From contig JAILZY010000009.1 in the NCBI GenBank assembly GCA_023512255.1, positions 4,011 to 68,010 of the forward strand: a DNA stretch of 64,000 nucleotides. The letters are read 5' to 3'. Source of the DNA: a bacterium (lineage in GTDB: Bacteria; SZUA-182; DTGQ01). Positions 7,790 through 29,941 of this stretch are shown here, in pieces. The notes under the pieces are model-generated. The model was not told the DNA's origin, ran no database searches, and was given only the letters and a program-made list of their open reading frames with translations. A program made the translations under genes and the position numbers. Position 1 is the stretch's first letter. Every line of letters starts with the position of its first letter.

Positions 7790-7837
7790 CCCAAATGTCA
7801 TTTTGTTAGGCGAGAGGAGTAAGAGGACTAATATAAG

Positions 7838-8560
7838 TTAGTTGAGTGTAAATTTAATCCATGTTACGCCTTGTCCTACCCTCACTCCATATGGGTCGCA
7901 GATAACTCTGTTTACCCCTATCCACCATTTCTTGTCATTCATTCCTCCTGGTCTTTCGAGATCAACATTTTCAAGCCGAAGAAGATATGCAGATTGCAAG
8001 GTTGCATTTTGGCTATTGTTGGTGCTATTTACATACTTAGCTTTGATGATAAACTTAGCCGATGTCTTTCCTTGCGGCTTGAGAAAATTATCTACCTGAA
8101 GCATGGGACGAGGATGCTCGGGATAAGAAAAATCATTAGGAAATACCCTTAGAGGGATATTAAGAAGATATGCCGGAAGTACTTTAGTTTCATCATCAAA
8201 ATCTGGGTATGGTGGCGCAATGATAGGCGCAATGATATCCAATTCTGCGTCATTAGAGGTCGTTCCTGCGTCTCCTCCATGTCCATTGTTTGTTTCGGAA
8301 TCCCCTATATTCAGGACATAGCCCTGGGGAGTCTTAAATTCCACATCTACCGTTAAGGTTGTGTAATTTGTCATGTCCACTTCAACTACTCCCCTTTGTG
8401 GTCCCGGCCCTGGGACTATATTTACCGGCCCGCTACAGTTACAGCTACTATTTATAACATCCCAATAACACGTATAACTTATTGCTGCTTGTGCCTGAAC
8501 GGAAAAAAGCATTAGACATACTATTGATAATCCAAAAAAAACCCCCCACTTTTTTAACAT
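7838..8560 (-). CDS. Secreted hypothetical protein
   Basis: Signal peptide ending AQA-A, AAGGAG RBS, distinctive NIGDSETNNGHGGDAGTTSNDAE motif. Confidence 0.8.
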   Translation of the reverse strand: MLKKWGVFFGLSIVCLMLFSVQAQAAISYTCYWDVINSSCNCSGPVNIVPGPGPQRGVVEVDMTNYTTLTVDVEFKTPQGYVLNIGDSETNNGHGGDAGTTSNDAELDIIAPIIAPPYPDFDDETKVLPAYLLNIPLRVFPNDFSYPEHPRPMLQVDNFLKPQGKTSAKFIIKAKYVNSTNNSQNATLQSAYLLRLENVDLERPGGMNDKKWWIGVNRVICDPYGVRVGQGVTWIKFTLN

Positions 8561-8624
8561 ATTATCTCTCCTTACTTAATATTTAGTTTTTAGTTAGGAG
8601 GCCTCCATTTATTTATGTTTAATA

Positions 8625-8640
8625 TGCAATTTCTATACCA
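8625..8640 (-). promoter_or_regulatory. Sigma54 -24/-12 promoter
   Basis: Minus strand TGGTATAGAAATTGCA: GG-N10-GC spacing, close to consensus TGGCAC-N5-TTGCW, 65 nt upstream of the 8560 start. Confidence 0.7.
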
Positions 8641-8788
8641 ATTATTTAATATAATATATTAATAGTATAATAAATATATTATATTAAATATAATAAAAAA
8701 TATAATTAATATTAAAATAAATATTTTATTATTAATTATTATTATTTAAATAAAAATTTTTTTAAATATAAATTGTAAATCAATAAAT

Positions 8789-8827
8789 TATGAAAATCAT
8801 TTCATATAATATGAAAACATTTTCATA
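8789..8827. promoter_or_regulatory. Double palindromic binding site (putative enhancer)
   Basis: TATGAAA-atca-TTTCATA-taa-TATGAAA-acat-TTTCATA. Confidence 0.75.
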
Positions 8828-8918
8828 CAATAAAATTGCTTTTCCTGGTAATTAATTTCCCAAATAAGGTTAGAGCGTTATGGATGGTGTGTATTTATGT
8901 AGCGTTATATGATGGTGC

Positions 8919-10943
8919 TTATTCAAAATTCTGCTGGCTCTCGATTTCTATTTTCGCCCGATTGGTGCAATCTTCATCTGGGACATCTTTGAGAGAGCCG
9001 GAAAGTTTACTCACCTTTTTCCAAACCCTGATAAATACATTGACAATAGCTGGGTCAAACTGGGTTCCAGCACACCTTCGAAGCTCTTGGAGTGCCTCTT
9101 CCGGCCTCTGAGCCTGTCGGTAGGGTCGATCAGAGGTCATGGCATCAAAAGCGTCGGCTACAGCCAATATACGGGTTTCTATCGAAACCTGGCTAGGTCC
9201 AAGGCCATCAGGATATCCTCTCCCATCATACCTCTCATGGTGATGCTTGATTCCCTCTCTGACCTCTTTCAGAAAGCTGATGTGATCGATAATCTTACTG
9301 CCAATCAAGGAGTGTTCTCGAACCATAGCCACCTCATCGGGAGACAGAGTCATTTCTTTGTGAAGGATGTTGAGGCTTACTCCGATCTTGCCGACATCAT
9401 GCAGGATACTAGCATGTCGCAGTATCTCCAGACTTTTTTCCGGCAGTCCAAGCTCTCTGGCAATTAGCAGGCTAAGTTCCGTAACTCGCTCTGAATGGCC
9501 GTAGGTATAGGGGTCTTTAGCCTCAATGGCATTGACCAGAGCACGGATAGTATCGAAATAGCTTTTCTTCAGATCATTATATAGGTTAAAGTTTTCAACT
9601 GCTACCGCAGCCTCACTAGCAATGGTGGTCAGAAGTTCAAAGTCATCGAGGGTAAATGGGGTATTCGATTGCTTATCAATCATGCCGATAACTCCCATAA
9701 TTCGATCCTTGGTGTATAGAGGAACGTACAGGACAGAGCGGGGCATGTGGTTTTTGATCTCTTCGATATGGAATCTGCCATCTTGGGAGAAATGAGGGAT
9801 TAATACAGACTTTCCGGTATCGAAAACATGCTGGGCAATTTTCTGATTTAGCAGATCTTCTCCTGGGTTTAAGCCACTACGCAGGATATGGCTTACCTTC
9901 AATTGATTCAGATCGCGATCAAAGATTGACAGGTAGCCTGAGGCTCCATTCAGGATGTTAGTCGTCATCTTGAGCACAGAGCTCAGCAATTGGTCAAGAT
10001 CGGCTACTGAGCCGATCTCCTTGGCAATATTATTTAAGGTGGTAAGAATGTCAATCGTTCGCTCAAGCTGGATATTCTTTTCCTCAATTTGCCGTTTATA
10101 TTTTAGTTCCTCCTCTGCTCTGACCAGAGCCTGCTCCCGTCGAAGGTCCCGCTCGTGAAGTTCGCTGATCTCCGAGATCATGTAATTGAAGGTATTCCCC
10201 AGTTTCCCAAGCTCATCCGTAGTGTTTAAAAGCACGCGGGCATCCCAGTTGCCCCGGCGGACAATGTTCATCACCTCCATCAGGGAGTGAATCGGCTTGG
10301 CGACCAGCTTCGAAAGCAGGAAATATATGGAGATACCGATCAGAAAAAGAGTTACCACTGCCGAGAGGATAATGAAAAACCGGCTCTCCATAAGAGGAAC
10401 CCTCATCCAGGCGATTGATATCCGAACCTGGAGTATCCCCATAAACTTATCTTCATTGCTATGGCAAGCATAACAGTTACTTTTGCCAATAATCGGCTTC
10501 AGTATGGAAATACTAGTATAATCAGGGGTGAGCTCGATTAGCTCATTTTTCCCTTGATTTATAAAGGATAAATCCACCTTGTCCAAAACAGTGCCTACTT
10601 CATTGATATCGCCAGAGGCAATGATCTTTTTCTGGTCATCAATGATCCTGACATCCTCCATATCGACCTCATTGGCGATATTGTTAAGCAAATCCTTTAC
10701 ATCTTCATGTTTCCCGATCAGCATTGAGTGGTTAATACTTGTTTCAAGGGTTTGAGCAATCTCCAAAATACGTTTTTTGGCCCCTTCCACAAAGTATCCT
10801 GTCTGCATGAGTAGGCTGATATAGGTCGATATGCTGATCCAGACAGCAACCACCATAATAGTGGACAGAATAATCTTAGATTGAAGTCGCTGACGAGGGC
10901 GGTGGATAAGATAATCGGCTAAGAATCTCGAGACCTTGAGCAT
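8919..10943 (-). CDS. Membrane HD-GYP phosphodiesterase (periplasmic CXXCH sensor, HAMP, GAF, HD-GYP)
   Basis: Two TM helices flanking CYACH; HAMP DELGKLGNTFNYM; GAF; AKDPYTYGHSERV, LHDVGKIG, HHERYDGRGYPDGL, VADAFDAMTSDRPYR. Confidence 0.9.
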   Translation of the reverse strand: MLKVSRFLADYLIHRPRQRLQSKIILSTIMVVAVWISISTYISLLMQTGYFVEGAKKRILEIAQTLETSINHSMLIGKHEDVKDLLNNIANEVDMEDVRIIDDQKKIIASGDINEVGTVLDKVDLSFINQGKNELIELTPDYTSISILKPIIGKSNCYACHSNEDKFMGILQVRISIAWMRVPLMESRFFIILSAVVTLFLIGISIYFLLSKLVAKPIHSLMEVMNIVRRGNWDARVLLNTTDELGKLGNTFNYMISEISELHERDLRREQALVRAEEELKYKRQIEEKNIQLERTIDILTTLNNIAKEIGSVADLDQLLSSVLKMTTNILNGASGYLSIFDRDLNQLKVSHILRSGLNPGEDLLNQKIAQHVFDTGKSVLIPHFSQDGRFHIEEIKNHMPRSVLYVPLYTKDRIMGVIGMIDKQSNTPFTLDDFELLTTIASEAAVAVENFNLYNDLKKSYFDTIRALVNAIEAKDPYTYGHSERVTELSLLIARELGLPEKSLEILRHASILHDVGKIGVSLNILHKEMTLSPDEVAMVREHSLIGSKIIDHISFLKEVREGIKHHHERYDGRGYPDGLGPSQVSIETRILAVADAFDAMTSDRPYRQAQRPEEALQELRRCAGTQFDPAIVNVFIRVWKKVSKLSGSLKDVPDEDCTNRAKIEIESQQNFE

Positions 10944-10988
10944 AAAATCATTACCACCTGATTTGAGAGTATATTTTACTACCCAGAA

Positions 10989-13127
10989 TCAACATAACCA
11001 GCATCTCACCCAGTGATCCTTTTCCCTCTCCAGCAATTCAGGGTTTTCCTCTCGGCACCGCTTCTCTGCCCGTGGGCAGCGAGGATAGAATCGACATCCC
11101 GGTGGCAAATTGATCGGCGAGGGCACATCTCCGCTCAAGGGGGGCTGTCTGCCCCGAAGTGAGGGATCGGTTACCGGATTGGAAGAGAGCAGGGCCAAAG
11201 TGTATGGATGGGCGGCTATTTTTACCAGCTTGTCAGCCGGCATCTGTTCCACGATCTGCCCTAGATACATAATGGCGATTTTATGGGAAATATGCTCTAC
11301 TACAGCAAGATTATGAGCAATAAAAAGATAGGAAAGATTCATCTCTTCCTGTAATTTTTGCAGCAGGTTGATAATCTGGGCCTGGATGGAAACATCAAGA
11401 GCCGACACTGCCTCGTCGCAGACGATAAATTCAGGGCTCAAGGCCAAAGCCCGAGCAATGCCGATCCGCTGACGCTGTCCGCCGGAAAATTCATGGGGAT
11501 AGCGGTTGATATAAGAAGGTGATAATCCGACCTTAGCAAAGAGATTTTCAACCAATGCCCGACGCTCGCGGCCGCGGGCGATTCCATGAGCAGTCAGGGC
11601 CTCTCCAACAATATTGCCTACGGTCAACCGCGGATTGAGCGAAGAGTAGGGATCTTGGAAAATGATCTGCATTTTTTGTCGTATCTTCCGTAAAGCTTCT
11701 CCCTTGAGAGAATACAGAGAGGTCCCCTTAAACAAAACATCTCCCGAGGTTGGCTCCATAAGCCTCAGTATCAGCCGGCCAACCGTGGTTTTCCCACAGC
11801 CCGACTCACCCACAAGCCCCAGGGTCTGCCCATGATTAATGCTCAATGACAAGCCATCGACAGCCTTGACCACAGCCTTGGTTCTTCTCCAAAATCCACG
11901 CCTTATGGGAAAGAACTTCCGTAGGTTCCTGACCTCTATGATTTTCTCAAAAGATCTGGCTGGCGAATATGGTCCACTTCCTATAAGTGCTGATCCTCTA
12001 TCATCTAAACGCTCACCCTCCACTAGTGCCAGTTGCCCATCCTTCTGCTGCCCCTGGCTATCTTCCTGTAGGGAGATAATAACCTTACCCTCCTTGCCAT
12101 CATCCCTTGATGATGAGCAAGGGAGGCCTTTGATCCTGTCGCCACCAGCTTTGCTGACTCTCCAGCAGGCTACCCAGCGGTTTGAGTCAATCTGGACAAG
12201 ATCTGGCTCCTCTTGTCGGCATCTTTGATCAGCCAAGGAACAGCGGGGCCAGAATTTACATCCTGGGGGAAAGTTCAAGGGATTTGGCACCTGTCCCTGA
12301 ATAGCCTCAAGGCGCCGCCCCCGTCCCCCAAGACAAGGCAGTGAATGGAACAAGCCGATAGTATAAGGGTGCAGAGGCTGTCTGAACAGCTCTTCGACAG
12401 TAGCCTGCTCAACTACCCGTGAGGCATACATTACCGCCACCTGATGGGCCATCTCGGCAATAACACCAAGGTCATGGGTGATCAGCAGAATAGACATTCC
12501 CATCTCCTGCTGCAATTGATAGAGGAGGTTGATGATCTGAGCCTGCATGGTTACATCTAGGGCTGTGGTAGGCTCATCGGCAATCAGCACCTGCGGGTTG
12601 CAGGCAATAGCCATGCCGATCATGGCTCGCTGTTTCATCCCTCCAGACATCTGATGAGGATATTCATCAATTCGAATCTGCGGTGAAGGGATACCGACCT
12701 TGGACATAATGTCGAGGGTACGCTCTCTGGCTTCGGCCCGGCTAAGCATTCGGTGGGTAATAAGGGTTTCCATGATCTGCTCTCCGATCCGAAAAACTGG
12801 ATTCAAGGAGGTCATAGGCTCCTGGAAAATCATCCCGATATTGTTACCCCGCACCTTTTGCATCGCCTGCTCAGGCAGATCAAGGAGGTTCTTCCCCTGG
12901 AATATTACCTGGCCGCCGGCAATTCTCCCGGACGGCGGCTTGATTAGGCGCATGATCGAAAGCGAGGTAACGGTTTTTCCGCAGCCTGATTCCCCGATAA
13001 TGCCAAGGGTTTCCCCGCGGGACAGGGTTAGATTGATCCCATCTACCGCCCTAATTTCACCTTGGGAAGTGCGAAAGTAGGTTTTAAGATTTTTGATTTC
13101 TAGTAAGATTTCCTTATCTTGGGACAT
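10989..13127 (-). CDS. Fused OppD/OppF-type oligopeptide ABC ATPase
   Basis: Two GESGCGKT Walker A motifs, YPHQMSGG and YPHEFSGG, two Cys-rich HPY tails. Confidence 0.9.
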
Positions 13128-13156
13128 ATTCTCTTGCTTTAGCTATTTAATGCTCA

Positions 13157-14131
13157 TTATCGCTCTCGCAGCCTTGGGTTTAGTGCCTCGCGCAATCCTT
13201 CCCCGAACAGATTAAAGGCTAGTACCGTAAGCAGAATGGCTGTGCCAGAGGCAATAAACAGCCAGGGAGCATCAAAGATAAATTCCTTACCGTCAGATAG
13301 GATATTGCCCCAGGAGGCTGCCGGTGGAGGAACCCCAAAGCCGAGGAAGCTTAAGCTTGACTCGGTCAGGATGGCGCTAGCCACTTCAATGGTCGCTGTA
13401 ACCAAAACTGGCGCGATGGCATTTGGGACCATATGAACAAACATAATTTTCAGCTTCGAGAGGCCAAGGGCCTCGGCCGCGACTACAAAATCCTGTTTTT
13501 TCAAAGCCAGAAATTCAGCCCGCACAAATCGGGCAATAGGTGGCCAACTGGTTAGCCCAATGACTATCATGATGTTCCAGATACTAGGGGGCAGCAGAGC
13601 AACTACAGTCAGAATCAGAAAGAATGAGGGGAAGCAGAGCATAATGTCAACCACGCGCATGATGATCGAATCAACATAGTAGCCTGAGTAGCCAGCCAGG
13701 GCCCCCAGAACGATACCCAGCACAACCGAAATGCCTACCGAGATAAACCCTACCAACAGGGATACATGAGCCCCCTGAAGCATCCTGGCTAGGACATCCC
13801 GACCTAGCTTGTCAGTGCCCAAAAGGTAGATGCCAAATAGTGGGCGATCCTCTGGTGCCAGAACAGACTCATTGGCTTTGGTTAGGGGAGGCTTTAGGGT
13901 ATCGACCAGCCGGACCTTCTCTGGATCCATGATCGGCTGGCGGCCTTCAGTCAAAATAAGGCCAGCAGCAGCAATAAAGAAAAAAATGGACAAAAGGCCT
14001 AGTCCCCAAAGAGCCAGGGAATTGGTCCTAAGTTGCCTCCACAGGTCCCTCAGGCCACTAACCTGGGGAAGCAGCAACTCTTGCTCTGGCTGCGGAGCGG
14101 AAAGATTAACTGATGATCCATTTTTTTCCAT
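13157..14131 (-). CDS. oppC: Oligopeptide ABC permease (OppC/DppC)
   Basis: LGTDKLGRDV, LSFLGFG, WGNIL, FNLFGEGLREALNP. Confidence 0.88.
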   Translation of the reverse strand: MEKNGSSVNLSAPQPEQELLLPQVSGLRDLWRQLRTNSLALWGLGLLSIFFFIAAAGLILTEGRQPIMDPEKVRLVDTLKPPLTKANESVLAPEDRPLFGIYLLGTDKLGRDVLARMLQGAHVSLLVGFISVGISVVLGIVLGALAGYSGYYVDSIIMRVVDIMLCFPSFFLILTVVALLPPSIWNIMIVIGLTSWPPIARFVRAEFLALKKQDFVVAAEALGLSKLKIMFVHMVPNAIAPVLVTATIEVASAILTESSLSFLGFGVPPPAASWGNILSDGKEFIFDAPWLFIASGTAILLTVLAFNLFGEGLREALNPRLRER

Positions 14132-14193
14132 GATTATTAAAACCTATTAATATATTTTATATAATATGTTCTTCATCTAAAGTGCTTATTTTC

Positions 14194-15171
14194 TTAGCCT
14201 TTCGATTCCGAGATTAGGGAAATTCTCGGGTCAACCACCATATATAGGAGGTCAGAAATAAAGGTGCCAACCAGGACCAGACAAGCGGCGATAAAGTTTA
14301 GACTCAGGATAAGTGGATAGTCTCTGGCCAAGATAGCGTCATAGCCAAGTCTTCCCATACCCGGCCAGGAAAAAATTGATTCGATAATAACTGATCCTCC
14401 GATCAGACCAGGCAGGGTCAACCCAAACATGGTAACAAAGGGAAGCAGAGCATTGCGCAGAGCGTGCTTGTAGTAAACCGTATCCGGCGGCAATCCCTTG
14501 GCCAGGGCAGTGCGAACATAATCCTGCTCGATGACCTCAAGCATCTGGCTCCTTACATATCGGGACAGAATGGCTATTCCCCCTATGGCGCTCAAGACCG
14601 AGGGCAGTACCAGGTGCCAGATGCGGTCGTTGATCAGATACCACCAGCTTACTGATTCTCGACCGAAGGTCTGCAATCCGATTACCGGCACGTTAAAGAC
14701 TTTGACTATGAAGATGATCAACACATAAGCCAGAAAGAAGGATGGCAGAGAAATGAAAAAATAAGAAAAGAAGGTGGTCGAGCGGTCGAAAAGAGACTGG
14801 CGACGCAGCGCAGCCTGGATTCCAAGAGGGAAAGCCAGACACCAGGTCAGCAGGGTTCCTACCAGAAAGAGTGGCAGGCTGTTGAGAAATCGTTCCGTGA
14901 TTTTTTTCAATACCGGCTGATTATCTTTATATGATCGCAGCTCATTAGTGAATAGCTTTTTATAAAACAGGTAATACTGAACGGGCAAAGGTTTGTCAAG
15001 GTCAAAGGCCTTGCGCAGCCGCTGAATATCCTCTTGGGTAAATTTAGGATTCAGCGGGTCAATTTCTGATGGATCTCCAGGGGCAAGCATCACCACACTG
15101 AATGAAATTATGGAAATAAAAAATAAGGTGATTAATTTTTCAACCAGACTTTTGGCCCAAAAAGAAAACAT
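14194..15171 (-). CDS. oppB: Oligopeptide ABC permease (OppB/DppB)
   Basis: APGDP, DYVRTALAKGL, HALRNA, ESIFSWPGMG, RDYP, DLLY.VDPRI. Confidence 0.88.
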   Translation of the reverse strand: MFSFWAKSLVEKLITLFFISIISFSVVMLAPGDPSEIDPLNPKFTQEDIQRLRKAFDLDKPLPVQYYLFYKKLFTNELRSYKDNQPVLKKITERFLNSLPLFLVGTLLTWCLAFPLGIQAALRRQSLFDRSTTFFSYFFISLPSFFLAYVLIIFIVKVFNVPVIGLQTFGRESVSWWYLINDRIWHLVLPSVLSAIGGIAILSRYVRSQMLEVIEQDYVRTALAKGLPPDTVYYKHALRNALLPFVTMFGLTLPGLIGGSVIIESIFSWPGMGRLGYDAILARDYPLILSLNFIAACLVLVGTFISDLLYMVVDPRISLISESKG

Positions 15172-15236
15172 GGCTCTTGTCTCTCCTGCCTCCTTGGTTA
15201 TTATTTTATGCTTATTATTTTACTAAAATTTTATTT

Positions 15237-17435
15237 TTATTCAAACCCTGTACTAAAGACCGGATCTTGTGGAAATTTGATCCACTTGTTAAAATAAAAG
15301 CTATAGTTACCCGTTTTCGTAGGGGTAATTCTCTTGATGATTTCCCGCCCTTGATCATCCCTTTCCAGGATAGCGATTTTTTTATCTAACAGGGCTGTCC
15401 AGCGTCCGACATAGAGGAAAGTATAGGGCTGATCATCGTAAATAATTTCATGTAATTTATGACAATATTCAATCTGTTTTTTCTCGTCATACTCTTGGCG
15501 AATTTTGAGAATCAAATCATCGGCCTGAGGGTTGTTATAGCCAACGAAATTGAGCTGATAATTTCCCGACTGACTGGAGTGCCAGATCTGATATAGATCA
15601 GGCTCAATTCCCATGCTCCATCCTAGCACCACAGCATCGAAATTGCCCACATTGATATGCTTTTCCAGAAAGACCGACCATTCCACACGATCCGCAGAGA
15701 CCTTCATCCCAAGCTTTTTCCAAGCATTCTGAGCAATGATCAAAATAGCCTCACGGTAAGGATTCCCATTATTAGTAATAATGCTGAACTCAAAATATTT
15801 CCCGCCCTTGCGCAAAAAGCCCTGCTCGTCACGCTCCCAGCCTGCTTCTCGCAAAAGCTGCAATGCCCCATCAGGATCATAGGGCAGTGGCTTGACCTCA
15901 TGGTTATAAAACTCTGTCTGCTTGAGAAAAGGGCCGGTGGTAGCCTCTCCCTCTCCATAGAGCACATATTGGATAATATCTGGAATATTAATAGCCATGG
16001 TCAAGGCCTTTCTTACCCTTTTATCCTGAAAAAGCTCGCGACGCAGATTATAGCCGATGTAGGTATAGCTGAAGGAGAGGCCGGAAAAATTTTGAAACCT
16101 GCTGTCTTTCTTTAGCCGATTAACCTGATGGACCCGAGCTTCGTAATGATCGGTTGCTCCGGCATAAAATTCAAGCTCCTGCGTCAGCATATCCGGTATC
16201 ACTCGCCAGATAAATTCCCGGTAGTGGGGTGCACCTTCCCAATAATTTTCATTTCTGACCAGTTTGATATACTGATCGGAACGCCACTCAACAAAGGTAA
16301 ATGGACCTGTACCTATGGGCCGCAGTTTGTTAAAATCGCTTTGGCGCATAGTAAATTCAGCCGGATCAAGGTTTTTTCCCCGAGCCTCCCTGGCCAGGCT
16401 TTCCTTGTTGAGCAGATGCTCTGGCAATATGCCAATCCCCCAGGCAGTAATTGCCGGCTGAAACAGCCGTTTATAGGTAATTTTCACCCGGTATTTATCG
16501 AGCACTTCCAGTGTCTTGACTGGCTCAAAATCAGGTATCCGGGGTGAGCGGTTAGCAGGATCCATGATTGACTCGTAGGTAAACCGCACATCATCGGCAT
16601 CAAATTCATGCCCATCGGAAAATCTTACCCCACGGCGGAGATTGAAGATAATAACCGGATTATGTTCAACCACTGGTAGATACTGGCTCAGATAGGCTGT
16701 CCGGCGCTCAGGCGTATCGTAGACAGGAGGGTCGATGGCTAAATAAGGTGAAAGCCGTTTCTGATTGAAATACCCACTACCCAGCAGGGGCTCAAGCTGA
16801 GTGAAAAAATCCTGATTCACCTCGCGCAAGGTAGCCTTAATTCGCGCTGGATAGCGAATGCTAACTTTGATCTTGATCTCCTTACCCTCACCCCCCTGTT
16901 CATTTGCTTCCTGCTCGGATACGACCCTCTCTTCGGTGCATGGGGGCAGAATATCAAGATGATCTATGTTTCTTAGGAAGGAATTCTCCGGCTGAGGAGA
17001 TGAGGCCGCTCTTTCAATAGCTTCCTTTACCGCCTCAGGGGTTGAAAGCCCTTTGCTGATCCAAACAGGATCGTCATTAACTACAAAGTAAACCTCTTCA
17101 TAAATTTTCCAATCCGTAGCTAGACGGCCTCGCAGTTTAAGATTCTCATCTCGATCGATCAAGCCATCGAATATCTTTTCGCAGATTTCGCTACTGGCTG
17201 AGTCAGCATTCAAGATAGGATTGATTATGGCCACATCGCCAATCGAAGCAGAAATATATTGGGTAAGCCGTTGTGGATTGCCTCTAGTCTGATGATCATA
17301 ATTTGGAACCCAGAAATATGACTGGACCAGAATGGCCAAAACCACTGCTGGCAGAATGATTAATATCCGTTTGGCAATTGCACCACTCATCGACTTTTGA
17401 GAATTTTTCCCCCTCTTCAGCCCAGGGCTTACCAT
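15237..17435 (-). CDS. oppA: Family 5 peptide-binding protein (OppA-like) with a large insertion
   Basis: LRRGVRFSDGHEFDADDV.FT, PIGTGPF, F.DKRVRKAL.MAIN, N.VGYNNP..D. Confidence 0.85.
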   Translation of the reverse strand: MVSPGLKRGKNSQKSMSGAIAKRILIILPAVVLAILVQSYFWVPNYDHQTRGNPQRLTQYISASIGDVAIINPILNADSASSEICEKIFDGLIDRDENLKLRGRLATDWKIYEEVYFVVNDDPVWISKGLSTPEAVKEAIERAASSPQPENSFLRNIDHLDILPPCTEERVVSEQEANEQGGEGKEIKIKVSIRYPARIKATLREVNQDFFTQLEPLLGSGYFNQKRLSPYLAIDPPVYDTPERRTAYLSQYLPVVEHNPVIIFNLRRGVRFSDGHEFDADDVRFTYESIMDPANRSPRIPDFEPVKTLEVLDKYRVKITYKRLFQPAITAWGIGILPEHLLNKESLAREARGKNLDPAEFTMRQSDFNKLRPIGTGPFTFVEWRSDQYIKLVRNENYWEGAPHYREFIWRVIPDMLTQELEFYAGATDHYEARVHQVNRLKKDSRFQNFSGLSFSYTYIGYNLRRELFQDKRVRKALTMAINIPDIIQYVLYGEGEATTGPFLKQTEFYNHEVKPLPYDPDGALQLLREAGWERDEQGFLRKGGKYFEFSIITNNGNPYREAILIIAQNAWKKLGMKVSADRVEWSVFLEKHINVGNFDAVVLGWSMGIEPDLYQIWHSSQSGNYQLNFVGYNNPQADDLILKIRQEYDEKKQIEYCHKLHEIIYDDQPYTFLYVGRWTALLDKKIAILERDDQGREIIKRITPTKTGNYSFYFNKWIKFPQDPVFSTGFE

Positions 17436-17490
17436 GTTGTTGGTTCACCAGAGCTGAAAGGACCAATGTTCACTGATAATAAATAACTCT

Positions 17491-17519
17491 ATTGTAGATA
17501 ACTTATTCCCAAAAGTCAA
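17491..17519 (-). promoter_or_regulatory. Sigma70-type promoter for the opp operon
   Basis: Minus strand TTGACT-17 nt-TACAAT. Confidence 0.6.
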
Positions 17520-17846: not shown

Positions 17847-17862
17847 TGCTGCGGCGGCAAAG

Positions 17863-22014: not shown

Positions 22015-22070
22015 ATAATAACCTTCAGTAATTATTGTTTATAATATTTATTATTTATTATTTTAATATT

Positions 22071-22183
22071 CGCTCTTATTTATTAGCTACCATTGAGAGA
22101 CATAACCCTAATAAAGAGCTAAGCCCATTCGAGGGTTTATGGTGTCTTGATATAGGGTTTATGGTGTCTGATATATAAGAGCG
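22071..22183. mobile_element. MITE, copy 1 (113 bp, CGCTCTTAT terminal inverted repeats, 8-bp TSD)
   Basis: Begins cgctcttat, ends ataagagcg; flanked by TTAATATT at 22063-22070 and 22184-22191; inverted homolog at 38779-38920. Confidence 0.85.
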
Positions 22184-22220
22184 TTAATATTATAATTATC
22201 CTTAATTGCTATTAATTACC

Positions 22221-23684
22221 CTAATTATCCTTTATTAATTGCCCTGTGATTAATTGCCCTGTGGCCGTAACCATGGATCTGCCCAGCGCCTTGTGCACCC
22301 TGATCTTGGAGAGGGTATGGGCGATCAGTGCATCCAGCAGATTCAGCTCTGCGGTCCGCAGGTTATTTCTGGCATCTACCAGCTCTAGATAACTGCTCGA
22401 CCCTAGCGTGTATCGAAGCTCGGTAATCTTCAAGCTTTCCTTGGCCAGCTTGATGTTGTCCTCGGCAATTTGCACCCGCTCCTGGGCATTTTCAAAGTTC
22501 GTTAGCTCTCTTTTGATTTCAAGCTTAATTGAATCTATAGTTTCCTTGATATCGGCTTCGGCTTGCTCAAGATCAATAATGGCCTGAGTTTTCGACTCTC
22601 GAATAACGCCGCCATCAAAGATAAAAAGCGGCAGATTAAGACTTGTGGTTACTGACCAGCTTGGCTCATCAGGCCGCTGATCTATGGCTTCTGATACCCG
22701 AGTGCCTGAAACCTGATACCCCCATCCTGCCGATAAAGACCAGGTAGGCCGATACGGGTCAGAAGTGGATTTTAAAGCAATCCGGGCAGACTCTAGCCTG
22801 AGCCGGGCGATTTCCATCTCAACTCGGCTCTTCAGGGCTTCTCTTTCAGCCTCCTCATAGGTAAAGGTTTCAGGAACATATTTTAATTCAGTTGTGGGCA
22901 CAATCTCAAGCCCATGATCAAGTACCAGGGTATTCAGCAAGGCAGCTAAAGCATTGAGATAATCCCGCTCATCCCTCTTCAAGCTCTGTTTGGCATTGTT
23001 CAATTGGACGGTAGCAGTCATGACATCAACCTCTGGGGCTCTTCCCTTTTCTACTCTAGCTTTGGCGATCCGAAGCTGCTCTTCGGCCATCTTCACCTGG
23101 GCCTGATCAATAGTAATGGTCTGCTGAAGCCGGATAAGTTCGTAGTATTGTTCACAGACGCTGACCACCAGATTCTGACAGGTCGTAATATAGTTAGCCT
23201 TGCTGCTGCTCAGGGAAATTGAAGCCTGCTGGAGAGATCGGTCTATGCTTCCCGACAGATCCAAAGGCAGGCTAAAGTTAACCTCAACCCCACCCCGATA
23301 AGTGTTTTCTACCGAAGGATCCATATTTATTTGATTATATACGCTATAAGAGGTAGAAATATCGCCCGACAGCTTGGGTGAGCAGCCTGCTTTGGCCATC
23401 CGGTAGCTTGATTCGGCACTCAGGAGAGTCCTTTGGGCTGTCTTCAGGTCGCGGTTATTTTTAAAGGCAAGCTTTAGCGCCTCTTCAATCGACAAATGAA
23501 TCTGCCGCTTCGGCAAATCCCCTTTCTCTTGTTGACCAAAGCCCATACCAGGGGATACTAAGAGTAGTATACCTACAAAGAAGATAACTACGGCAGCTAA
23601 TATAGACAGCCACAGGCTGAGAGAAAAACCCTCTATAGCCCTGTCTATAGCCCTTATAGCCCTGTCGATCGGTTTAATCTGCAA
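22221..23684 (-). CDS. tolC: TolC-family outer membrane efflux protein
   Basis: LSIEEALKLAFKNN, LPLFIFDGG, RYTLGSSSYLELVDA; AAGGAGG RBS before TTG start. Confidence 0.85.
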   Translation of the reverse strand: MQIKPIDRAIRAIDRAIEGFSLSLWLSILAAVVIFFVGILLLVSPGMGFGQQEKGDLPKRQIHLSIEEALKLAFKNNRDLKTAQRTLLSAESSYRMAKAGCSPKLSGDISTSYSVYNQINMDPSVENTYRGGVEVNFSLPLDLSGSIDRSLQQASISLSSSKANYITTCQNLVVSVCEQYYELIRLQQTITIDQAQVKMAEEQLRIAKARVEKGRAPEVDVMTATVQLNNAKQSLKRDERDYLNALAALLNTLVLDHGLEIVPTTELKYVPETFTYEEAEREALKSRVEMEIARLRLESARIALKSTSDPYRPTWSLSAGWGYQVSGTRVSEAIDQRPDEPSWSVTTSLNLPLFIFDGGVIRESKTQAIIDLEQAEADIKETIDSIKLEIKRELTNFENAQERVQIAEDNIKLAKESLKITELRYTLGSSSYLELVDARNNLRTAELNLLDALIAHTLSKIRVHKALGRSMVTATGQLITGQLIKDN

Positions 23685-23910
23685 GAATTACCTCCTTGAG
23701 AGGGAGCAAGAATTACCTCTTTCGAGAGACTGCATAGAGAGAATACATAGAGAGACTCTCTAGAGACTGCATAGAAATATACTCTATAGAATAAAATCCA
23801 TAACAGAATAACATCCATAAGGTAGTGAAGTTATTAAGATTAATAAGGTTATATGAATCTAAATTTATTTAGTATTTTACAGTAATTAGTTAAAAATTTT
23901 TATCATTACT

Positions 23911-23939
23911 ATTCTACCAGAAAGAAAATATCAAATCAA
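23911..23939 (-). promoter_or_regulatory. Sigma70-type promoter for the tolC-MFP-ABC operon
   Basis: Minus strand TTGATT-17 nt-TAGAAT. Confidence 0.55.
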
Positions 23940-24188
23940 GCAAATTGTAATAAATTGCATTAATTTTAATTATGGAGATGAAATCAGGAAGCTCTTAGAA
24001 AAAAAGGCTGGACAAATTGCTCTACACTTCCTCCCCTTTTTTTGGCGAGAGAAGGAAGTGGAGAGAGTGATCTTATCAAGGAGCTTTTCCCTCAGGGGGA
24101 AATTTCAAAATATCCCCATTTTATAGCCTCAATTTTACTCGCCTAATTTCAATGGGTTTTCCAGGAAATCTAAAACTCAATGGTATTT

Positions 24189-25364
24189 TCAGCGAGTCGA
24201 AAGTTTCTGTAAGGAGGAGTGCCGCTGATTGGGTTTGACAGCCAGATTGGCTTTGATTGGTAAAACCTGCGGACGCTCCAGTGAGGCTTCTTGAGATGAT
24301 AGCAGCTCGGTAACCTTTTTGGTCTTCAGGTCAATTAGGCAAATAATCCGTTTTTTGTCTTCCTTTCCTTTTCGCCGAGCGAAAATCAGCTTGGTTCCAT
24401 CAGGCCACCAGGCAGGCTGAGCATCATCTGGGCCATCCGTTATCCGCTCAAGCCGCGATCCATCCGGGGTAAAGGTCCAGATGGTTTTAGTATCGGTGAT
24501 CGGATCATGGCCGCGAAAAGCGATCCGATCCCCTTGAGGAGACCAGACCGTCTCATTGACAGCAAAGCCGCCGGGCAGTGGTTTGGTTATGGTCTTGGTT
24601 TTAAGGTCCATGATCTTGGCTGTAGCTATCGGAAAGGCAAGTGGGAAGCCCTCGATCTTGAGCAGTTGGGTTTGGACAAAAGCGATCTTAGAGCCATCCG
24701 GCGACCAGCATGGAGTCAGCTGATCAACGTTGATTTTATCCTGAGTACCTGTGTTGTTTTTATCCTGAGTACCTGTCTGGGTATCTATCTGGGTATCTAA
24801 GATAGAGCGGTTTTGGCCATTTATATCCATAAGGTAAATACGCCAGGACGTATCGGCATTAGGATCTGCCAGCCGGGTACAGAAAGCCAAACGCTTTCCA
24901 TCCGGTGAGCAACTGGGATTACAATCAAGGGCTGAATTGTTTGAGATCTGGGTAACCTTTTTGCTGTCCAAATCCAGTTTGAAGATCTGATACAACACTC
25001 GGCCTGTCTTGGGATCATCCACCGAATCTTCAAAGAAGACGCTCTTTCCATCAGGAGAAAAGCTGGGATTTTGAGCGAAAAAACTGTAGGTCAACTGTTG
25101 GATCTGCCCATCAGATCTGGCAAGATAAAGATTGATAGCCGCTGCGGTTTCGGCCTGGAATACAACCATGCACTCTGGAATGGTCGCATGAGAGACAATC
25201 TTTACGCTTTCCTTTGGCTTGGTAGGGGGGGCCGACCGAGAGACTATGTTTACACCGCTTTCTGGTTCGGCATGGAGTAGATGAAGCGGGGCCAGGGTAA
25301 TTAGCAGGGAGAAAATTATCAGTGAAACGGTCCAACCTATCTTGGAAAATGTATGGCGAAGCAT
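24189..25364 (-). CDS. Secreted TolB-like (PD40) beta-propeller protein
   Basis: Repeated PSFSPDG/PCWSPDG/WSPQG/PAWWPDG; start moved to ATG 25364 behind AAGGAGG. Confidence 0.8.
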   Translation of the reverse strand: MLRHTFSKIGWTVSLIIFSLLITLAPLHLLHAEPESGVNIVSRSAPPTKPKESVKIVSHATIPECMVVFQAETAAAINLYLARSDGQIQQLTYSFFAQNPSFSPDGKSVFFEDSVDDPKTGRVLYQIFKLDLDSKKVTQISNNSALDCNPSCSPDGKRLAFCTRLADPNADTSWRIYLMDINGQNRSILDTQIDTQTGTQDKNNTGTQDKINVDQLTPCWSPDGSKIAFVQTQLLKIEGFPLAFPIATAKIMDLKTKTITKPLPGGFAVNETVWSPQGDRIAFRGHDPITDTKTIWTFTPDGSRLERITDGPDDAQPAWWPDGTKLIFARRKGKEDKKRIICLIDLKTKKVTELLSSQEASLERPQVLPIKANLAVKPNQRHSSLQKLSTR

Positions 25365-25567
25365 GAAAAATTTATCCTCCTTAAAATAATAGAAGAACAA
25401 AGCCAATAATAGAAGAACAAAGCCGAAAGTATCAAATAGAAAGTATTTGATTATGATAATTATTATCTGTCTAATTGTTATCTGTCCAGATTTAAGTTAG
25501 CAGTTAGATATTTAATTAGCAATCAATATCTAATTCAACCAGTACTTAATTCAGCCTCAGAATCAAA

Positions 25568-25605
25568 AGGAGGCGGGAAAGCCTTTCTTTATCTCCCCGC
25601 CTCCT
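25568..25605 (-). terminator. Intrinsic terminator of the beta-helix gene
   Basis: aggaggcggg..cccgcctcct 10-bp stem followed by T run on minus strand. Confidence 0.65.
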
Positions 25606-25645
25606 AAAAATCAGCCCCTTTAAAAATTTTTTAATATAATCTTAA

Positions 25646-27802
25646 TCAATATGGCCAAACCCAGCTCGGATACAGCAGCCACGGCCACATAAGGTTAGAA
25701 TACAGTCGCCCGGCCACACCCGCCATCAAACCCGCCGGATAGAAGGATGGAATAATAGGAGAATAATAAATTGAGATCGGGGCTGGAATAGCAGCCGAAA
25801 CAGGTCCATGGAAGTTGCTTACCCCATGGGTGTCTATATCTTCTAGGCGATAGAAGTAGGTAATCCCAGGTGCGGCTGTGGTATCAACATAGGAATACTC
25901 TGCCTTCAGGGTAGCCCCACCCTCGGATGGGATAATCGCGGCATTGATCTTGGTGTATTCTCCGCTCTCTTTATTGCTGCGCCAGAGGTTGAATCCTGCG
26001 GTGTCGATCTCGCTCAGTGTGGTCCAGGATAGGATGATTTGTCCGCCTCCTGGGGTGGCAGTGAATTGATCTAGTTTAATCACATTAGGTCCTTCAGCCT
26101 CATAAGCCCCCATATCACTTGCCCACTTACCGTCATTATTTCCATCCATTGGCCTGGGTTGAGAATCTTTATCCTCAGCCACCGGCGGATCAAGCCATCT
26201 CGCCAGATCAATGCAAGGAGAGCTAGCGCTTAGGCGGTAGTCACCCAAGTCAGGATCAACAAATTGTGGATCTCTATTGATATTGTGGTCCTCTGGATTA
26301 CCATAGCCACCCTTGACGTCAGAGTAGGTAACATCAAGACCATTGCCAGATATTTCATCTGGCAAATTAAGCCAGATAATACTGTTTTTGACAACTGCAT
26401 TTGATAAGTAATTATAAATTGCTCCACCACTATTGCTGGAGGCGACATTTCCACTCATAGTACAATGGATCAATTCCAGCGGTGCGCTATTATTATAATT
26501 GTAGATTCCACCACCTTCTCCTAACTGAGCCAAGTTGACCGCTAATACACAGTTGGTCAGGGTCATCGGAGATGAACTTTGTTGGCGATAGATCCCGCCG
26601 CCTTGCCCGCTTATAGCCTCATTATCTTTAATAGTACATTTGTCTATGGTGATTATCCCCGCCGTGGAACAATAAATTCCACCACCAGAATTAAGAGCAT
26701 GATTACGTTCGATAGCAGAGGCAGTGGCTTTCAATCTGGCGTTAGTCATGCAGGCAACCCCACCGCCATTAGTGGCCGAGTTGTTATTAATCGTACATTT
26801 GATGAAATGTGGTGCAAAAGAGGAAGCTGCGCAATATATTCCACCACCATAGGATATTAAGGTCCCATTACTATTCTCAGCCGAATTATTATTTATTGTT
26901 GTATCTTTAACTATAGTGGCTTTTGAGGGGAGATCAAAGAAATATATCCCTCCGCCTCGGCCAGAATTTCCACGATTTATTGTATCTGAACTGGCCGTTG
27001 ATGAATTATTACTAACCGTACAATTTCTGATGATCAGTGAAGATTTATCGCTATAAATTCCCCCACCGTTGCCAGTACTGATGCCAGAATCGAATGGATT
27101 AAAGGGATCATCCACAGAGGGTATGGCCCTATTATTAGTAATAGTACAGTTTTCAATGGTCGCTACTGCCCGGAAGCAGGAAATTCCGCCGCCATTGCCA
27201 GCACTGGCTTCATTTCTTCCAACAATGCAGCCAGTAATGATTACTGGTGAAGCATTATATGAACAACAAATTCCACCCCCATCACCAGCCGTAGCTATAT
27301 TATCGCTAATCGTACAGTTGGTAATTTTTGCTGAGGAGTCATTGCAATAAATCCCACCACCATTGGCAGCGCTATTATTTACAATGATACAATTTTTAAT
27401 CTCTGGCGAACACGACCAGCAACTAATTCCTCCCCCATTATCAACACCGGCATTTCCATTTTGGATAGTAAATCCATTAAGTACAGAATCTCCATAAAAA
27501 GTAACTGTGCTTCCCATATTACTACCATTAATAATTGTGGATGCCACTATCATAGGGTTATCGGGATTGGTACTTTGGACTGTTATAGACTTATCGCCCC
27601 AGAAATACACATTCTCAAAATATGTCCCACTGCGAACAATAACTACATCCCTATCAGCGGCATTAAAAATGGCTTGGTTAATAGTTGGGTAGTTATCAGG
27701 TACATAGATAGTGTTTGCTTCCAGCCAAGATACATGGACTACCAATATTACCACCATGATCATGAAAACTAAGGCTATGCTGAGCGTTAATCCTTTTTTC
27801 AT
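25646..27802 (-). CDS. Secreted right-handed beta-helix repeat protein with C-terminal Ig-like module
   Basis: IYVPDNYPTINQAI, many N.A..GGGIYC repeats, DPQFVD..DYRL..SPCID..DMGAYE, SWTTLSEIDTAGFNLWRS..YFYRLEDID. Confidence 0.85.
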   Translation of the reverse strand: MKKGLTLSIALVFMIMVVILVVHVSWLEANTIYVPDNYPTINQAIFNAADRDVVIVRSGTYFENVYFWGDKSITVQSTNPDNPMIVASTIINGSNMGSTVTFYGDSVLNGFTIQNGNAGVDNGGGISCWSCSPEIKNCIIVNNSAANGGGIYCNDSSAKITNCTISDNIATAGDGGGICCSYNASPVIITGCIVGRNEASAGNGGGISCFRAVATIENCTITNNRAIPSVDDPFNPFDSGISTGNGGGIYSDKSSLIIRNCTVSNNSSTASSDTINRGNSGRGGGIYFFDLPSKATIVKDTTINNNSAENSNGTLISYGGGIYCAASSFAPHFIKCTINNNSATNGGGVACMTNARLKATASAIERNHALNSGGGIYCSTAGIITIDKCTIKDNEAISGQGGGIYRQQSSSPMTLTNCVLAVNLAQLGEGGGIYNYNNSAPLELIHCTMSGNVASSNSGGAIYNYLSNAVVKNSIIWLNLPDEISGNGLDVTYSDVKGGYGNPEDHNINRDPQFVDPDLGDYRLSASSPCIDLARWLDPPVAEDKDSQPRPMDGNNDGKWASDMGAYEAEGPNVIKLDQFTATPGGGQIILSWTTLSEIDTAGFNLWRSNKESGEYTKINAAIIPSEGGATLKAEYSYVDTTAAPGITYFYRLEDIDTHGVSNFHGPVSAAIPAPISIYYSPIIPSFYPAGLMAGVAGRLYSNLMWPWLLYPSWVWPY

Positions 27803-28130
27803 GGTCTCTCCTTTTTATTATAATAAATTATATATAAATTAATCCTTATAACAGGTAATTTAACTATAAAAAATATACAAGCAAGCCGGCTTATATTTTT
27901 AAACTCACTCTCATATAGCAGACACCAAAATGGAGAACCGTGAAAGAAAGATTCTGTATTCTCATAACTTCATGAGAGTCTCTCTCTTTTGTTATTCTTT
28001 AAGCATGGCATCTAATAAAATTAAAATGAGAGCGGTTTGAACTTTTTGAACTCTATTTCCGCATATTTTTAACTGGAGTAAAAAATTTTACAATTGAAAC
28101 TACCCACGGGAACTTTATCGACTCAAAAAA

Positions 28131-28185
28131 TGCCCCGGTGTAAGGATAAAAGCGGATTTTATTCTACTTCCTCCCCACCGGGGCA
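28131..28185 (-). terminator. Intrinsic terminator after the small secreted paralog pair
   Basis: tgccccggtg..caccggggca stem followed by T6 on minus strand. Confidence 0.6.
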
Positions 28186-28217
28186 AGTTTATGCATATAG
28201 CAGATTTATCCTAAAGC

Positions 28218-28631
28218 TTAGAAGGTAACCCAAGCCGAATTAGGATATACTGCAATATTGGCTGTACGGGTCCAAGTTTGACCAGGCCAATCTATAGCGG
28301 GGAAACTAACAGGAGCTGAGGTTCCCGTAAACCTGATGTTTACTGTTCCAAATATTGTCATGGTCCAGTCAGCCGTAGCTACTACATTAGTAGCACCTGA
28401 GAAATTCTGGACTACCTTTTTTATTTGATAATATCCATTAGAGTTTGTAGTTGTGCTGCCAAAAATCTGGTTAACCTGAATACTCGCCCCTGGACAGACA
28501 TAAGTATACTCCATAATATTGACTGTACCATTGATAGTAACCGTTCCCTGGACAGGCTGCTGTGCTGCGGCGATTCCTGTCATTACTACTACTGCCAAAA
28601 CCGAAATAATCAAGCTTGCAAACTTCTTCAT
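28218..28631 (-). CDS. Small secreted hypothetical protein (paralog B)
   Basis: MKK signal peptide, AAGGAG RBS; shares Y.CPG, TTTNSNG.Y, SAPV and WP with 28866-29390. Confidence 0.8.
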   Translation of the reverse strand: MKKFASLIISVLAVVVMTGIAAAQQPVQGTVTINGTVNIMEYTYVCPGASIQVNQIFGSTTTNSNGYYQIKKVVQNFSGATNVVATADWTMTIFGTVNIRFTGTSAPVSFPAIDWPGQTWTRTANIAVYPNSAWVTF

Positions 28632-28865
28632 CGTCTTTCTCCTTAAAAATAGTTAATTAACTTTATATAAATAAAAATTAATAAATAATTAATAATTAAT
28701 AATTACATAATACAATGCATGTCCTTACATACTTTAAAAGTTACATCACAACAAAAAGTTACAACGGGCCGTCTCGCTTCAATATTAACACCTCCTTTCT
28801 TTTTTCTTCATAACAGAGAGAGTCTGTCATGAAGAGAGCTTTAAAGATTTTTTAAAAAAACTGAA

Positions 28866-29390
28866 TTAGTTCGAAATCCCTCTTAAAATCCCGTTTGTCG
28901 AAACAGAAGATGAAACAGTATCTATATCTACTACCGATTCTACTACCGGCTTTATTGAAATAAAATCTCCCGGCAGTGGAATATCCGCTATACAGGTATA
29001 GATTGGGCTTGGCCATTGACTTATTGGAGGATAGTAAACAGGCGCTGATTCTCCATGAAAGTGAAGATTGATTTGCATATCGCATGGACGAAAAGGGAAT
29101 TGAAGTGTAAGATCCCAATTCCCTATAGCTACCACCGTAGCACCTGGGAAATCAGGCCCTACCTTCTTTTTTGCTATATAGTCTCCGTTGGAGTTCGTAG
29201 TTGTGGGTTCAAAAAGCTGAGAAAACTTTACGTTCACCCCTGGGCAGGTGTATGCATACTGGGGATGGTTACCAATATATACCTTACCTTTTATAATAGC
29301 TGTTCCTTCAACTGTTTTTATCTGGGCTGTTGCTATTCTTGCTATAGTCAATATCGAAAATAAAATAATTAAGCTTATAAATTTTTTCAT
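28866..29390 (-). CDS. Small secreted hypothetical protein (paralog A)
   Basis: MKK signal peptide; collinear similarity to 28218-28631. Confidence 0.78.
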   Translation of the reverse strand: MKKFISLIILFSILTIARIATAQIKTVEGTAIIKGKVYIGNHPQYAYTCPGVNVKFSQLFEPTTTNSNGDYIAKKKVGPDFPGATVVAIGNWDLTLQFPFRPCDMQINLHFHGESAPVYYPPISQWPSPIYTCIADIPLPGDFISIKPVVESVVDIDTVSSSVSTNGILRGISN

Positions 29391-29612
29391 GGCTTTCTTC
29401 TTTCTTATATTATATTAAGTATAATATTAATAAATTTAAGTTACTTCTATATTTTGTAATTTATTTTAAAATTTTTGATTTTATTTGATTTATATGAAAA
29501 ATAATTTTTAATAAATTTTTTAAAAATTATAGTTTACCTAAATGTAAGTTATTTTAAATTAATAAATTAACATTAATTTATATAGATTACATTCTCTATG
29601 CAAATAATATTT

Positions 29613-29628
29613 TGCAAAATATATGTCA
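29613..29628 (-). promoter_or_regulatory. Degenerate sigma54-like promoter
   Basis: Minus strand TGACATATATTTTGCA: GA in place of GG at -24, correct spacing to TTGCA. Confidence 0.4.
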
Positions 29629-29902
29629 TATATAAATTTTATTTTTTATAAAAATATGATATTTAAAATAATTCATTGTTTTATATTAAACTACTCATCA
29701 TAATTTAGATATCCACTATGTTTTTAAGTAATAATGATAATATTTAATTCTTACTGATATATAGTTTTTTTATTTTTAATAATAAAAAATCAATACAAAT
29801 TTTATATTTACTGATAAAATAATTTAATAGATTTAATTTCAAATAAATTTAAATAATTTATTTATTATATCAATAATAATTAATTAATTTTAAATATTTA
29901 AT

Positions 29903-29941
29903 TATGAAATTTATTTCATATCATATGAAACATATTTCATA
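29903..29941. promoter_or_regulatory. Double palindromic binding site, same architecture as 8789-8827
   Basis: TATGAAA-ttta-TTTCATA-tca-TATGAAA-cata-TTTCATA. Confidence 0.75.

Follow-up and report, generated by a model that had tools for sequence, protein, structure and literature searches.

Sigma-54 has been portrayed, as a generalisation across species, as a controller of the bacterial exterior (PMC3162934). In Proteobacteria, the PEP-CTERM genes of the PrsK/PrsR system share an upstream activator motif, a spacer, and a sigma-54 element, and their activator was found by phyletic profile, as described in PMC1569441. Here, we report that a 64,000-nucleotide stretch of DNA (the window, i.e., G000:C84:4011-68010; the host assembly G000 is 3.83 Mb in 172 contigs with 47% G+C) carries two double palindromes built from TATGAAA-N4-TTTCATA, each located upstream of a -24/-12 type promoter and of genes for small signal-peptide proteins. 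We regard it as highly probable that these tandem palindromes serve a sigma-54 regulon as its upstream activating sequence (enhancer), a degree of confidence that applies to the enhancer and the regulon and not to the identity of the activator. One activator together with sigma-54 appears to switch on about 29 scattered promoters, mostly of genes for exported or surface proteins, and the window is predicted to hold two of the outputs. The sequencing runs that contain the window DNA are labelled hot springs metagenome.

Several traits of the PrsK/PrsR system, as PMC1569441 describes it, are found here as well, i.e., dispersed, mostly single-gene export units behind long intergenic regions; a shared activator motif, spacer, and -24/-12 element with one activator inferred by comparative genomics; and a link to polysaccharide and surface biology; three regulon members here have tails that look PEP-CTERM-like by eye, and the genome has an exosortase gene. 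In contrast to the PrsR system, the window's targets and most of the others have no PEP-CTERM tail, the host is outside the Proteobacteria, and the activator candidate that we favor (encoded on contig C114) is without a receiver domain; the PrsR model TIGR02915 gives 300.6 bits for the C114 protein and 418.3 bits for a second candidate (encoded on contig C45), both short of the cut-off of 502.6. The C114 protein rather resembles PspF and HrpR/HrpS, which, as presented in PMC3105312, also consist of an AAA+ and a helix-turn-helix domain only and have their sites upstream of sigma-54 promoters. According to the same source, HrpS naturally has a Tyr in its loop (Y85F is a gain of function), as does the C114 protein with GSYTGA, and HrpRS stands at the top of a secretion-related program, another likeness to the present regulon; PspF and HrpRS, however, serve one or very few promoters and are checked by PspA or HrpV, whereas about 29 promoters are involved here. 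The C114 gene, unlike those of PspF and HrpRS, is itself predicted to be sigma-54 dependent, and its product scores below the PspF equivalogs (TIGR02974, 273.1 versus 443.55 bits; NF008622, 242.4 versus 529). In the NtrC/AtoC family, cooperative dimers on tandem sites nucleate the ring. The tandem dyad sites of that type lie 100-200 bp upstream, as here, and the C45 protein shares its architecture, with AtoC as its best-scoring model, while falling below every equivalog cut-off (490 bits versus 714 for AtoC). The outputs differ, being nitrogen or short-chain fatty acid metabolism in the NtrC/AtoC type and exported proteins here; the published AtoC site may resemble the TATGCAA variant.

The regulon content (pili, polysaccharide export, surface and secreted proteins, and enzymes of cyclic di-GMP (c-di-GMP)) fits the theme of PMC3162934, which in its accessible part describes neither this motif nor an activator for it. 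No paper combining TATGAAA, TTTCATA, and sigma-54 was found in the literature, and neither TGAAA nor TTTCA occurs in the main text of a Desulfovibrio regulome paper, whose supplements may list motifs. The mechanism is textbook; the regulon, the operator, and the candidate activator are new and come from an uncultured hot-spring lineage.

Tandem palindromes and predicted sigma-54 promoters

Direct reading and a pattern search both give four exact copies of TATGAAA-N4-TTTCATA in the window, i.e., half of the eight exact copies in the genome. At site 1, the promoter-proximal palindrome (TATGAAA-ATCA-TTTCATA, 8789..8806), whose end is 148 bp from the -24 element, is followed at 21 bp by the distal one (TATGAAA-ACAT-TTTCATA, 8810..8827); at site 2, the proximal (TATGAAA-TTTA-TTTCATA, 29903..29920) and distal (TATGAAA-CATA-TTTCATA, 29924..29941) copies have the same 21-bp period and are the same in two metagenome contigs (no strand is assigned to the palindromes). 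As the original prediction had it, the pairs are perfect, with all 28 arm bases the same at both sites and with spacers that differ (ATCA/ACAT at site 1, TTTA/CATA at site 2). Five palindromes with ≤2 mismatches, including the four exact ones, are found in the window, compared with 0.49 on average and at most 3 in 100 dinucleotide shuffles. For the whole genome, 100 control palindromes of the same composition with permuted arm letters served as an AT-matched null: there are 74 real palindromes with ≤2 mismatches against a control mean of 32, and 10 real tandem pairs spaced 18-22 bp against a control mean of 0.03 (maximum 1), so the pairs are far above the chance level with which they were to be compared. 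Among the near-match pairs genome-wide (≤5 mismatches in total), a spacing of 20-22 bp is the mode (12/25), and single pairs are spaced at 18 and 19 bp.

Sigma-54 promoters have a -24 GG and a -12 GC 10 nt apart in a TGGCAC-N5-TTGCW-like context, and their activator sites are usually present in at least two dyad-symmetric copies roughly 80-200 bp upstream. Our matrix for such promoters yields 260 sites scoring ≥13 and 145 scoring ≥14 on both strands of the whole genome. The suggested tie between the motif and -24/-12 elements was found to be strong: 40 of the 74 palindromes are located 40-300 bp upstream of an outward-pointing promoter scoring ≥13, while the permuted-arm controls have a mean of 1.19 such sites (of a mean of 32) and a maximum of 5 (n=100). 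Counted from the promoters, 31 hits (about 28 distinct) have a palindrome with ≤2 mismatches 30-320 bp upstream, which together with window site 2 makes about 29. The distance from the proximal palindrome to the -24 element is mostly 98-200 bp across the regulon, with 148 bp at site 1 and 274 bp at site 2. A gene for sigma-54 itself, rpoN, was checked for and is present (one PF04552 match, E 3.3e-60, in a 495-aa open frame, C75:6499-6972). The prediction of dispersed secreted proteins downstream of the motif also agrees with the data: 22 of the 25 first open reading frames (≥100 aa) have exported or membrane-like N-termini by a crude rule, compared with 723 of 2690 background frames (26.9%).

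The motif is also enriched in relatives. Relative to a reversed control, it occurs 28 versus 3 times in this genome, 15-24 versus 1-7 times in five other genomes of the family (with an excess in all), and 3-14 versus 0-4 times in seven other genomes of the order (likewise with an excess); seven further genomes of the class give 0-2 versus 0-7, i.e., no excess. At 8 of the 14 palindrome loci retrieved from G001 and G004, the distance to a sigma-54 promoter is 130-299 bp, and at two of the three palindrome loci of G008 it is 135 and 226 bp. One other genome with a motif excess, G020 (7 versus 1), was set aside, with no sigma-54 promoter at three loci inspected.

Some points weigh against the regulon as drawn here. 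The sigma-54 matrix was built from the general consensus (TGGCAC-N5-TTGCW) and is untrained on this organism; the export rule, which takes a basic N-terminus followed by an 11-residue hydrophobic window, counts membrane anchors too; and members with a single site are less secure, e.g., the Flp pilus locus, which has one site with two mismatches. A clear tandem pair is present at about 12-13 of the about 29 promoters, the others having one good site or wider-spaced sites. Taken together, the sigma-54 regulon of dispersed secreted proteins under one activator, as originally proposed, is largely supported, and every refutation test that could be run came out in its favor.

The two window sites and the products of the proposed regulon

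At site 1, the sigma-54 type -24/-12 promoter TGGTATAGAAATTGCA (8625..8640, minus strand) has a matrix score of 14.8, in agreement with the good element noted there before, and the spacer to the enhancer (8641..8788, no strand assigned) is 148 bp with ~2% G+C. From the promoter position, transcription would start near 8614, and the ATG of the target is 65 nt past the promoter on the minus strand. The target (7838..8560, minus strand) encodes a 240-aa orphan signal-peptide protein, for which no Pfam or NCBIfam family was matched and no homologue was found among 13 relatives, two of the same genus included; a search of 5.8 billion proteins gave a single match, 29% identical. Its structure model is unusable, with a predicted local distance difference test (pLDDT) value of 33.7. 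A terminator-like hairpin (7764..7793, minus strand; 12-pair stem with 9 G-C pairs and a T-rich tail) is located behind the gene, and on these predicted features site 1 is a single-gene unit which looks fully functional. The gene just upstream of site 1 (8919-10943, minus strand) encodes a HAMP-GAF-HD-GYP protein, likely a c-di-GMP phosphodiesterase; the regulon itself holds two GGDEF proteins.

At site 2, the top sigma-54 candidate within 28632-29960 is TGACATATATTTTGCA (29613..29628, minus strand), which scores just 9.6 because its -24 element reads GA instead of GG. The spacer to the enhancer (29629..29902, no strand assigned) is 274 bp with ~9% G+C, so that both palindrome pairs are followed by the very AT-rich tract that had been described. 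A leader of 222 nt separates the promoter from the first gene, 2a (28866..29390, minus strand; 174-aa signal-peptide protein), which is followed by 2b (28218..28631, minus strand; 137-aa signal-peptide protein), a paralogue 46% identical to 2a. Small signal-peptide proteins thus stand downstream of both sites, as first noticed. Protein 2a has no homologue in the 13 relatives, including the two of the same genus, and one 95% identical cluster among 5.8 billion proteins; protein 2b has a weak CarboxypepD_reg match below the cut-off. No terminator-like site was found between the two genes, and they are probably co-transcribed. Next downstream on the same strand (25646-27802, minus strand) is a gene for a 718-aa signal-peptide protein with a right-handed beta-helix and Chlamydia-PMP repeats.

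The 95% identical copy of the 174-aa protein is encoded on two metagenome contigs, L201 and L202. When they are aligned to the window, the 39-bp double palindrome is letter-for-letter the same, and at the aligned promoter position both read the canonical TGGCATATATTTTGCA (TGGCAT-N5-TTGCA) where the window has TGACAT; the differing base is position 29626 of the plus strand. The presence of a canonical promoter at the aligned position indicates that the element called degenerate (29613-29628) had been placed correctly, and by this alignment a single G-to-A change is what sets it apart, in this strain, from a canonical sigma-54 promoter. The leader (29391-29612) is about 100 nt longer than in L201/L202, and its segment before the ATG seems to repeat a stretch that is single in these relatives. 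Given the G-to-A change at the invariant -24 GG and the extended leader, site 2 is probably weakened or silent in this strain. Please note that the GA at 29626-29627 is covered by one contig only, the probable source contig; the change may be either a real attenuating mutation or an assembly error.

DNA bending was considered for the spacers. An IHF-consensus match AATCAAtaaaTTA at 8778-8790 overlaps the palindrome edge of site 1, so the match that had been noted exists; as a feature of the system it did not hold, with two matches to the consensus WATCAANNNNTTR in the 29 enhancer-promoter spacers compared with 0.97 expected (52 of 200 dinucleotide shuffles reach 2). With no excess across the 29 spacers, the window match stands alone and IHF was rejected as part of the system, while the four HU/IHF-family genes in the genome mean that a bending protein is available. 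One of these four (C75:5142-5408) precedes rpoN on its strand by about 1 kb. Eleven of the 29 spacers are under 20% G+C; phased A-tract bending was also rejected, with no excess of 10-11 bp power in these 11 AT-rich spacers and a sole outlier at period 9 (3/200 shuffles). The extreme AT-richness may ease looping or bind a nucleoid protein. Sigma-70-like hexamers in two window regions are not above shuffles (9 versus 6.0, sd 2.3, and 16 versus 11.0, sd 2.9). Rfam gave no match at E ≤0.1 in 20 promoter/leader loci and none at the gathering score in the window, and on this empty result we rejected the idea that the long leaders contain riboswitches or other known RNAs.

The predicted regulon products are diverse. 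They include surface proteins with CarboxypepD_reg domains, a 985-aa subtilase with Ig-like domains, a cohesin/dockerin protein, a 1265-aa HYR-domain protein, a 946-aa Calx-beta/fn3 protein, a Flp pilin with prepilin peptidase and CpaB, a Wzy_C polymerase with a Poly_export protein, a class III cytochrome c followed by a GGDEF protein, a second small GGDEF protein (i.e., two diguanylate cyclases in all), one sigma-54 activator (the C114 protein), and a dozen signal-peptide proteins that match no family. With two diguanylate cyclases, the Flp pilus, and polysaccharide genes among its members, the regulon may bring about life on surfaces or in aggregates. Another unit is a peptide-maturation cluster (C8:41667-45307), which follows a tandem palindrome and TGGTATATTAATTGCT and encodes a 57-aa Cys-rich peptide, a PqqD/radical-SAM/SPASM enzyme, and an HPr-kinase-like protein.

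PEP-CTERM-like C-termini were seen by eye in 3 of the 25 targets (one on C130 and two on C20) and in none of the window's; a TIGR02595 search gave no match, yet it is uninformative as its control matched in no genome either. An exosortase gene (C20:13120-13878) lies ~7-8 kb from the two regulon proteins with such tails on that contig (C20:21037-22383), the tails being hydrophobic and then KKK/RKK; the third tail is at C130:47827-48819. Separately, a 956-aa sigma-54 activator (C45:7946-9612) is beside a second, weaker exosortase-like match (34.2 bits), and this pair may be a separate PrsR-like system.

Candidate activators

PF00158 matches 32 places in the genome, of which 27 are full sigma-54 activators. 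As anticipated, the activator is not encoded in the window, since none of the 27 is on the window's contig. At slightly better than even confidence, we propose that the palindromes are bound by the 341-aa activator at G000:C114:28393-29418; apart from the C45 protein considered below, the remaining odds go to some other protein. The C114 protein has PF00158 (2.3e-69), AAA_lid_14, and HTH_8 (a Fis-type helix-turn-helix), carries GESGTGKE and ILLDEI motifs (Walker A and B), and has no N-terminal sensory domain, i.e., the sigma-54 domain begins at residue 9 of 340, and orthologues are 332-367 aa long. It is below every NCBIfam equivalog cut-off, and a protein-atlas search returned generic activator clusters only.

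Of the 27 activators, the C114 protein alone has both the motif and a sigma-54 promoter ahead of its own gene. Orthologues can be fixed by synteny (tsaD-activator-selA in the family; tsaD-activator(-selA) order-wide, selA being variable), and at 11 of the 11 orthologue loci, which come from three families of the order and count this genome among them, the gene has a sigma-54 promoter ahead of it and a palindrome with ≤3 mismatches is located ~110-210 bp upstream of that promoter; a second, more degenerate copy was seen by eye 18-19 bp away at all 11. The recognition helix IDRRNLGYF is invariant in the 11 orthologues, while the C58 paralogue and proteins from outside the order have IDQRNL[SFN]YF, and the motif enrichment follows the same phyletic boundary, the order, as the C114-type activator. 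In G008 (93% complete), the C114-type activator and motif-promoter pairs are present and no orthologue of the C45 protein was found. The C58 paralogue was rejected as the binder: it has a sigma-54 promoter but no upstream palindrome, and its recognition helix is different. This sensor-less paralogue has its promoter TGGCATAAACCTTGCT in C58:16703-16796, and the leader between promoter and ATG holds three direct repeats (A/G)AAACTGCA, ~20-21 bp apart.

Beside the C114 gene, and divergent from it, is a gene for a UpxY-family NusG paralogue (C114:27425-27991; 130.4 bits, cut-off 100), which is found in five of five family genomes examined and not in the sister family. Leaders are long (260-800 nt) in several members of the regulon and could be acted on by antiterminators of the UpxY type.

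A number of observations weigh against the C114 protein. The Phe of the GAFTGA loop contacts sigma-54 in well-studied activators, and a Tyr replaces it here: the loop is GSYTGA in G007 and in each of the five members of the family that were compared, and GSFTGA in the sister family. GAYTGA and GSFTGA are listed as active variants in PMC6615313, as far as that source covers them; the GSYTGA loop itself was not found in print. In G003 (76% complete), the motif is enriched (16 versus 1), yet no C114-type orthologue was found. A sensor-less activator that needs its own product would have a start-up problem, which a two-component cascade would solve, and the response regulator on C45 is equally conserved beside the motif.

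This response regulator (G000:C45:21213-22586; 457 aa with receiver, AAA+, and helix-turn-helix) is encoded behind a GAF/HisKA/HATPase histidine kinase and is the main competitor; we consider it a possible but less probable binder. The kinase would then sense a signal that turns on all regulon members, among them the neighboring diguanylate cyclase and the C114 activator, with the latter being a second-tier regulator with its own targets. The order of the cassette (kinase, regulator, tandem palindromes, sigma-54 promoter, GGDEF gene) speaks for it, as the usual rule of the neighboring activator would make the C45 protein the binder. A palindrome with ≤2 mismatches lies 4-114 bp past the stop codon at 9 of 10 orthologue loci across the order, this genome included; in the intergenic alignment, the palindromes and the promoter are the sole blocks conserved within the family; and the helix-turn-helix is nearly invariant. 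A gene activated by nothing but its own product would have difficulty in starting up, which the cascade would remedy. Sensor-less activators such as HrpS are, in the description of PMC3105312, controlled by other factors and not by a domain of their own.

On the other hand, no C45 orthologue was found in G008, G011, or G012 (93% complete for G008 and 63% for each of the other two; best matches 43-45% identical), while G008 and G012 retain the C114-type activator with the motif and G008 has motif-promoter pairs; the orthologue in G007 has the promoter but no palindrome at ≤3 mismatches. Adjacency is fallible as well: the motif stands just behind the stop codon of two activators, the C45 gene and C8:53552-54976, and the latter was rejected as the binder, with the motif downstream in none of its five orthologues. 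The gaps in G008, G011, and G012 and the failure of the neighbor rule at C8 tip the balance, modestly, to the C114 protein over the C45 protein.

It is very improbable, in our view, that the palindromes bind a factor which is not an activator at all, i.e., a global co-regulator or repressor of many sigma-54 promoters, each promoter having its own activator site elsewhere. Three different activator genes adjoin motif copies, which could suggest local activators with a shared second factor, and the 5-N4-5 core of the palindrome presumably resembles the layout of a CRP/FNR-type dimer site. However, the palindromes have the traits of activator sites, in that they lie mostly 98-200 bp upstream, come in tandem about two helical turns apart, and are strictly paired with -24/-12 elements; the conserved C45 cassette leaves no other conserved block for a separate activator site; and most targets have no activator gene nearby. 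Weakest of all, with a next to negligible probability, is that the palindromes arose by chance in very AT-rich intergenic DNA or are the ends of a small mobile element: the surrounding DNA is only 2-13% G+C and such tracts weakly match many other AT-rich tracts in BLAST, but permuted palindromes of matched composition almost never pair or adjoin sigma-54 promoters, the observed count was unreached in any window shuffle, conservation is limited to the arms while spacers and flanks vary, and the motif is kept at orthologous places across an order. A BLAST comparison of the two intergenic regions with the whole genome gave low-complexity AT-rich matches only (70-89% identity over 40-186 bp), so the window sites are not copies of a mobile element or long repeat, and this origin was rejected.

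Working model and significance

In the model that we propose, two dimers of one enhancer-binding protein would bind the two palindromes, about two helical turns apart, and nucleate a hexameric ATPase ring; the 100-200 bp spacer would loop out, and the ring would remodel the sigma-54 RNA polymerase at the -24/-12 element, opening the closed complex so that the gene behind could be transcribed. Binding, looping, and activation are modeled here on the known mechanism of the enhancer-binding-protein family. If the C114 protein is the binder, it would activate its own sigma-54 promoter as well, possibly resulting in positive feedback.

A more far-reaching picture, which we offer as speculation and think rather doubtful, is that the sensor-less GSYTGA activator C114 acts as a master switch that amplifies itself and governs an accessory exterior differing between strains, of which single outputs would be retired through point changes in the -24 GG as at 29626. 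Orphan or newly acquired export genes would join by sitting behind a portable cassette of paired palindromes, an extremely AT-rich spacer, and a sigma-54 promoter; the activator, its recognition helix, and the motif would be fixed across the order while the cargo would turn over within the genus, as may be the case for the three window targets with no homologue in the 13 relatives. The diguanylate cyclases, the Flp pilus, and the polysaccharide genes would then link the switch to a surface-attached life style.

Interest in the system comes from the size of the regulon, its orphan-rich content, a possible sensor-less and self-activating master regulator, and a natural variant of the -24 element. 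With a 39-bp operator, two named candidate activators, and a natural promoter-down allele, a test in vitro or in a heterologous host is feasible without culturing the organism. For the organism, about thirty genes, many of them for orphan secreted proteins that databases leave unexplained, would gain one co-regulated exported/surface program, and pili, polysaccharide export, and c-di-GMP synthesis would fall in the same program as these orphans. The regulon adds a case from outside the Proteobacteria of a large sigma-54 regulon of the cell exterior, parallel to PrsR/PEP-CTERM and possibly with a sensor-less activator on top.

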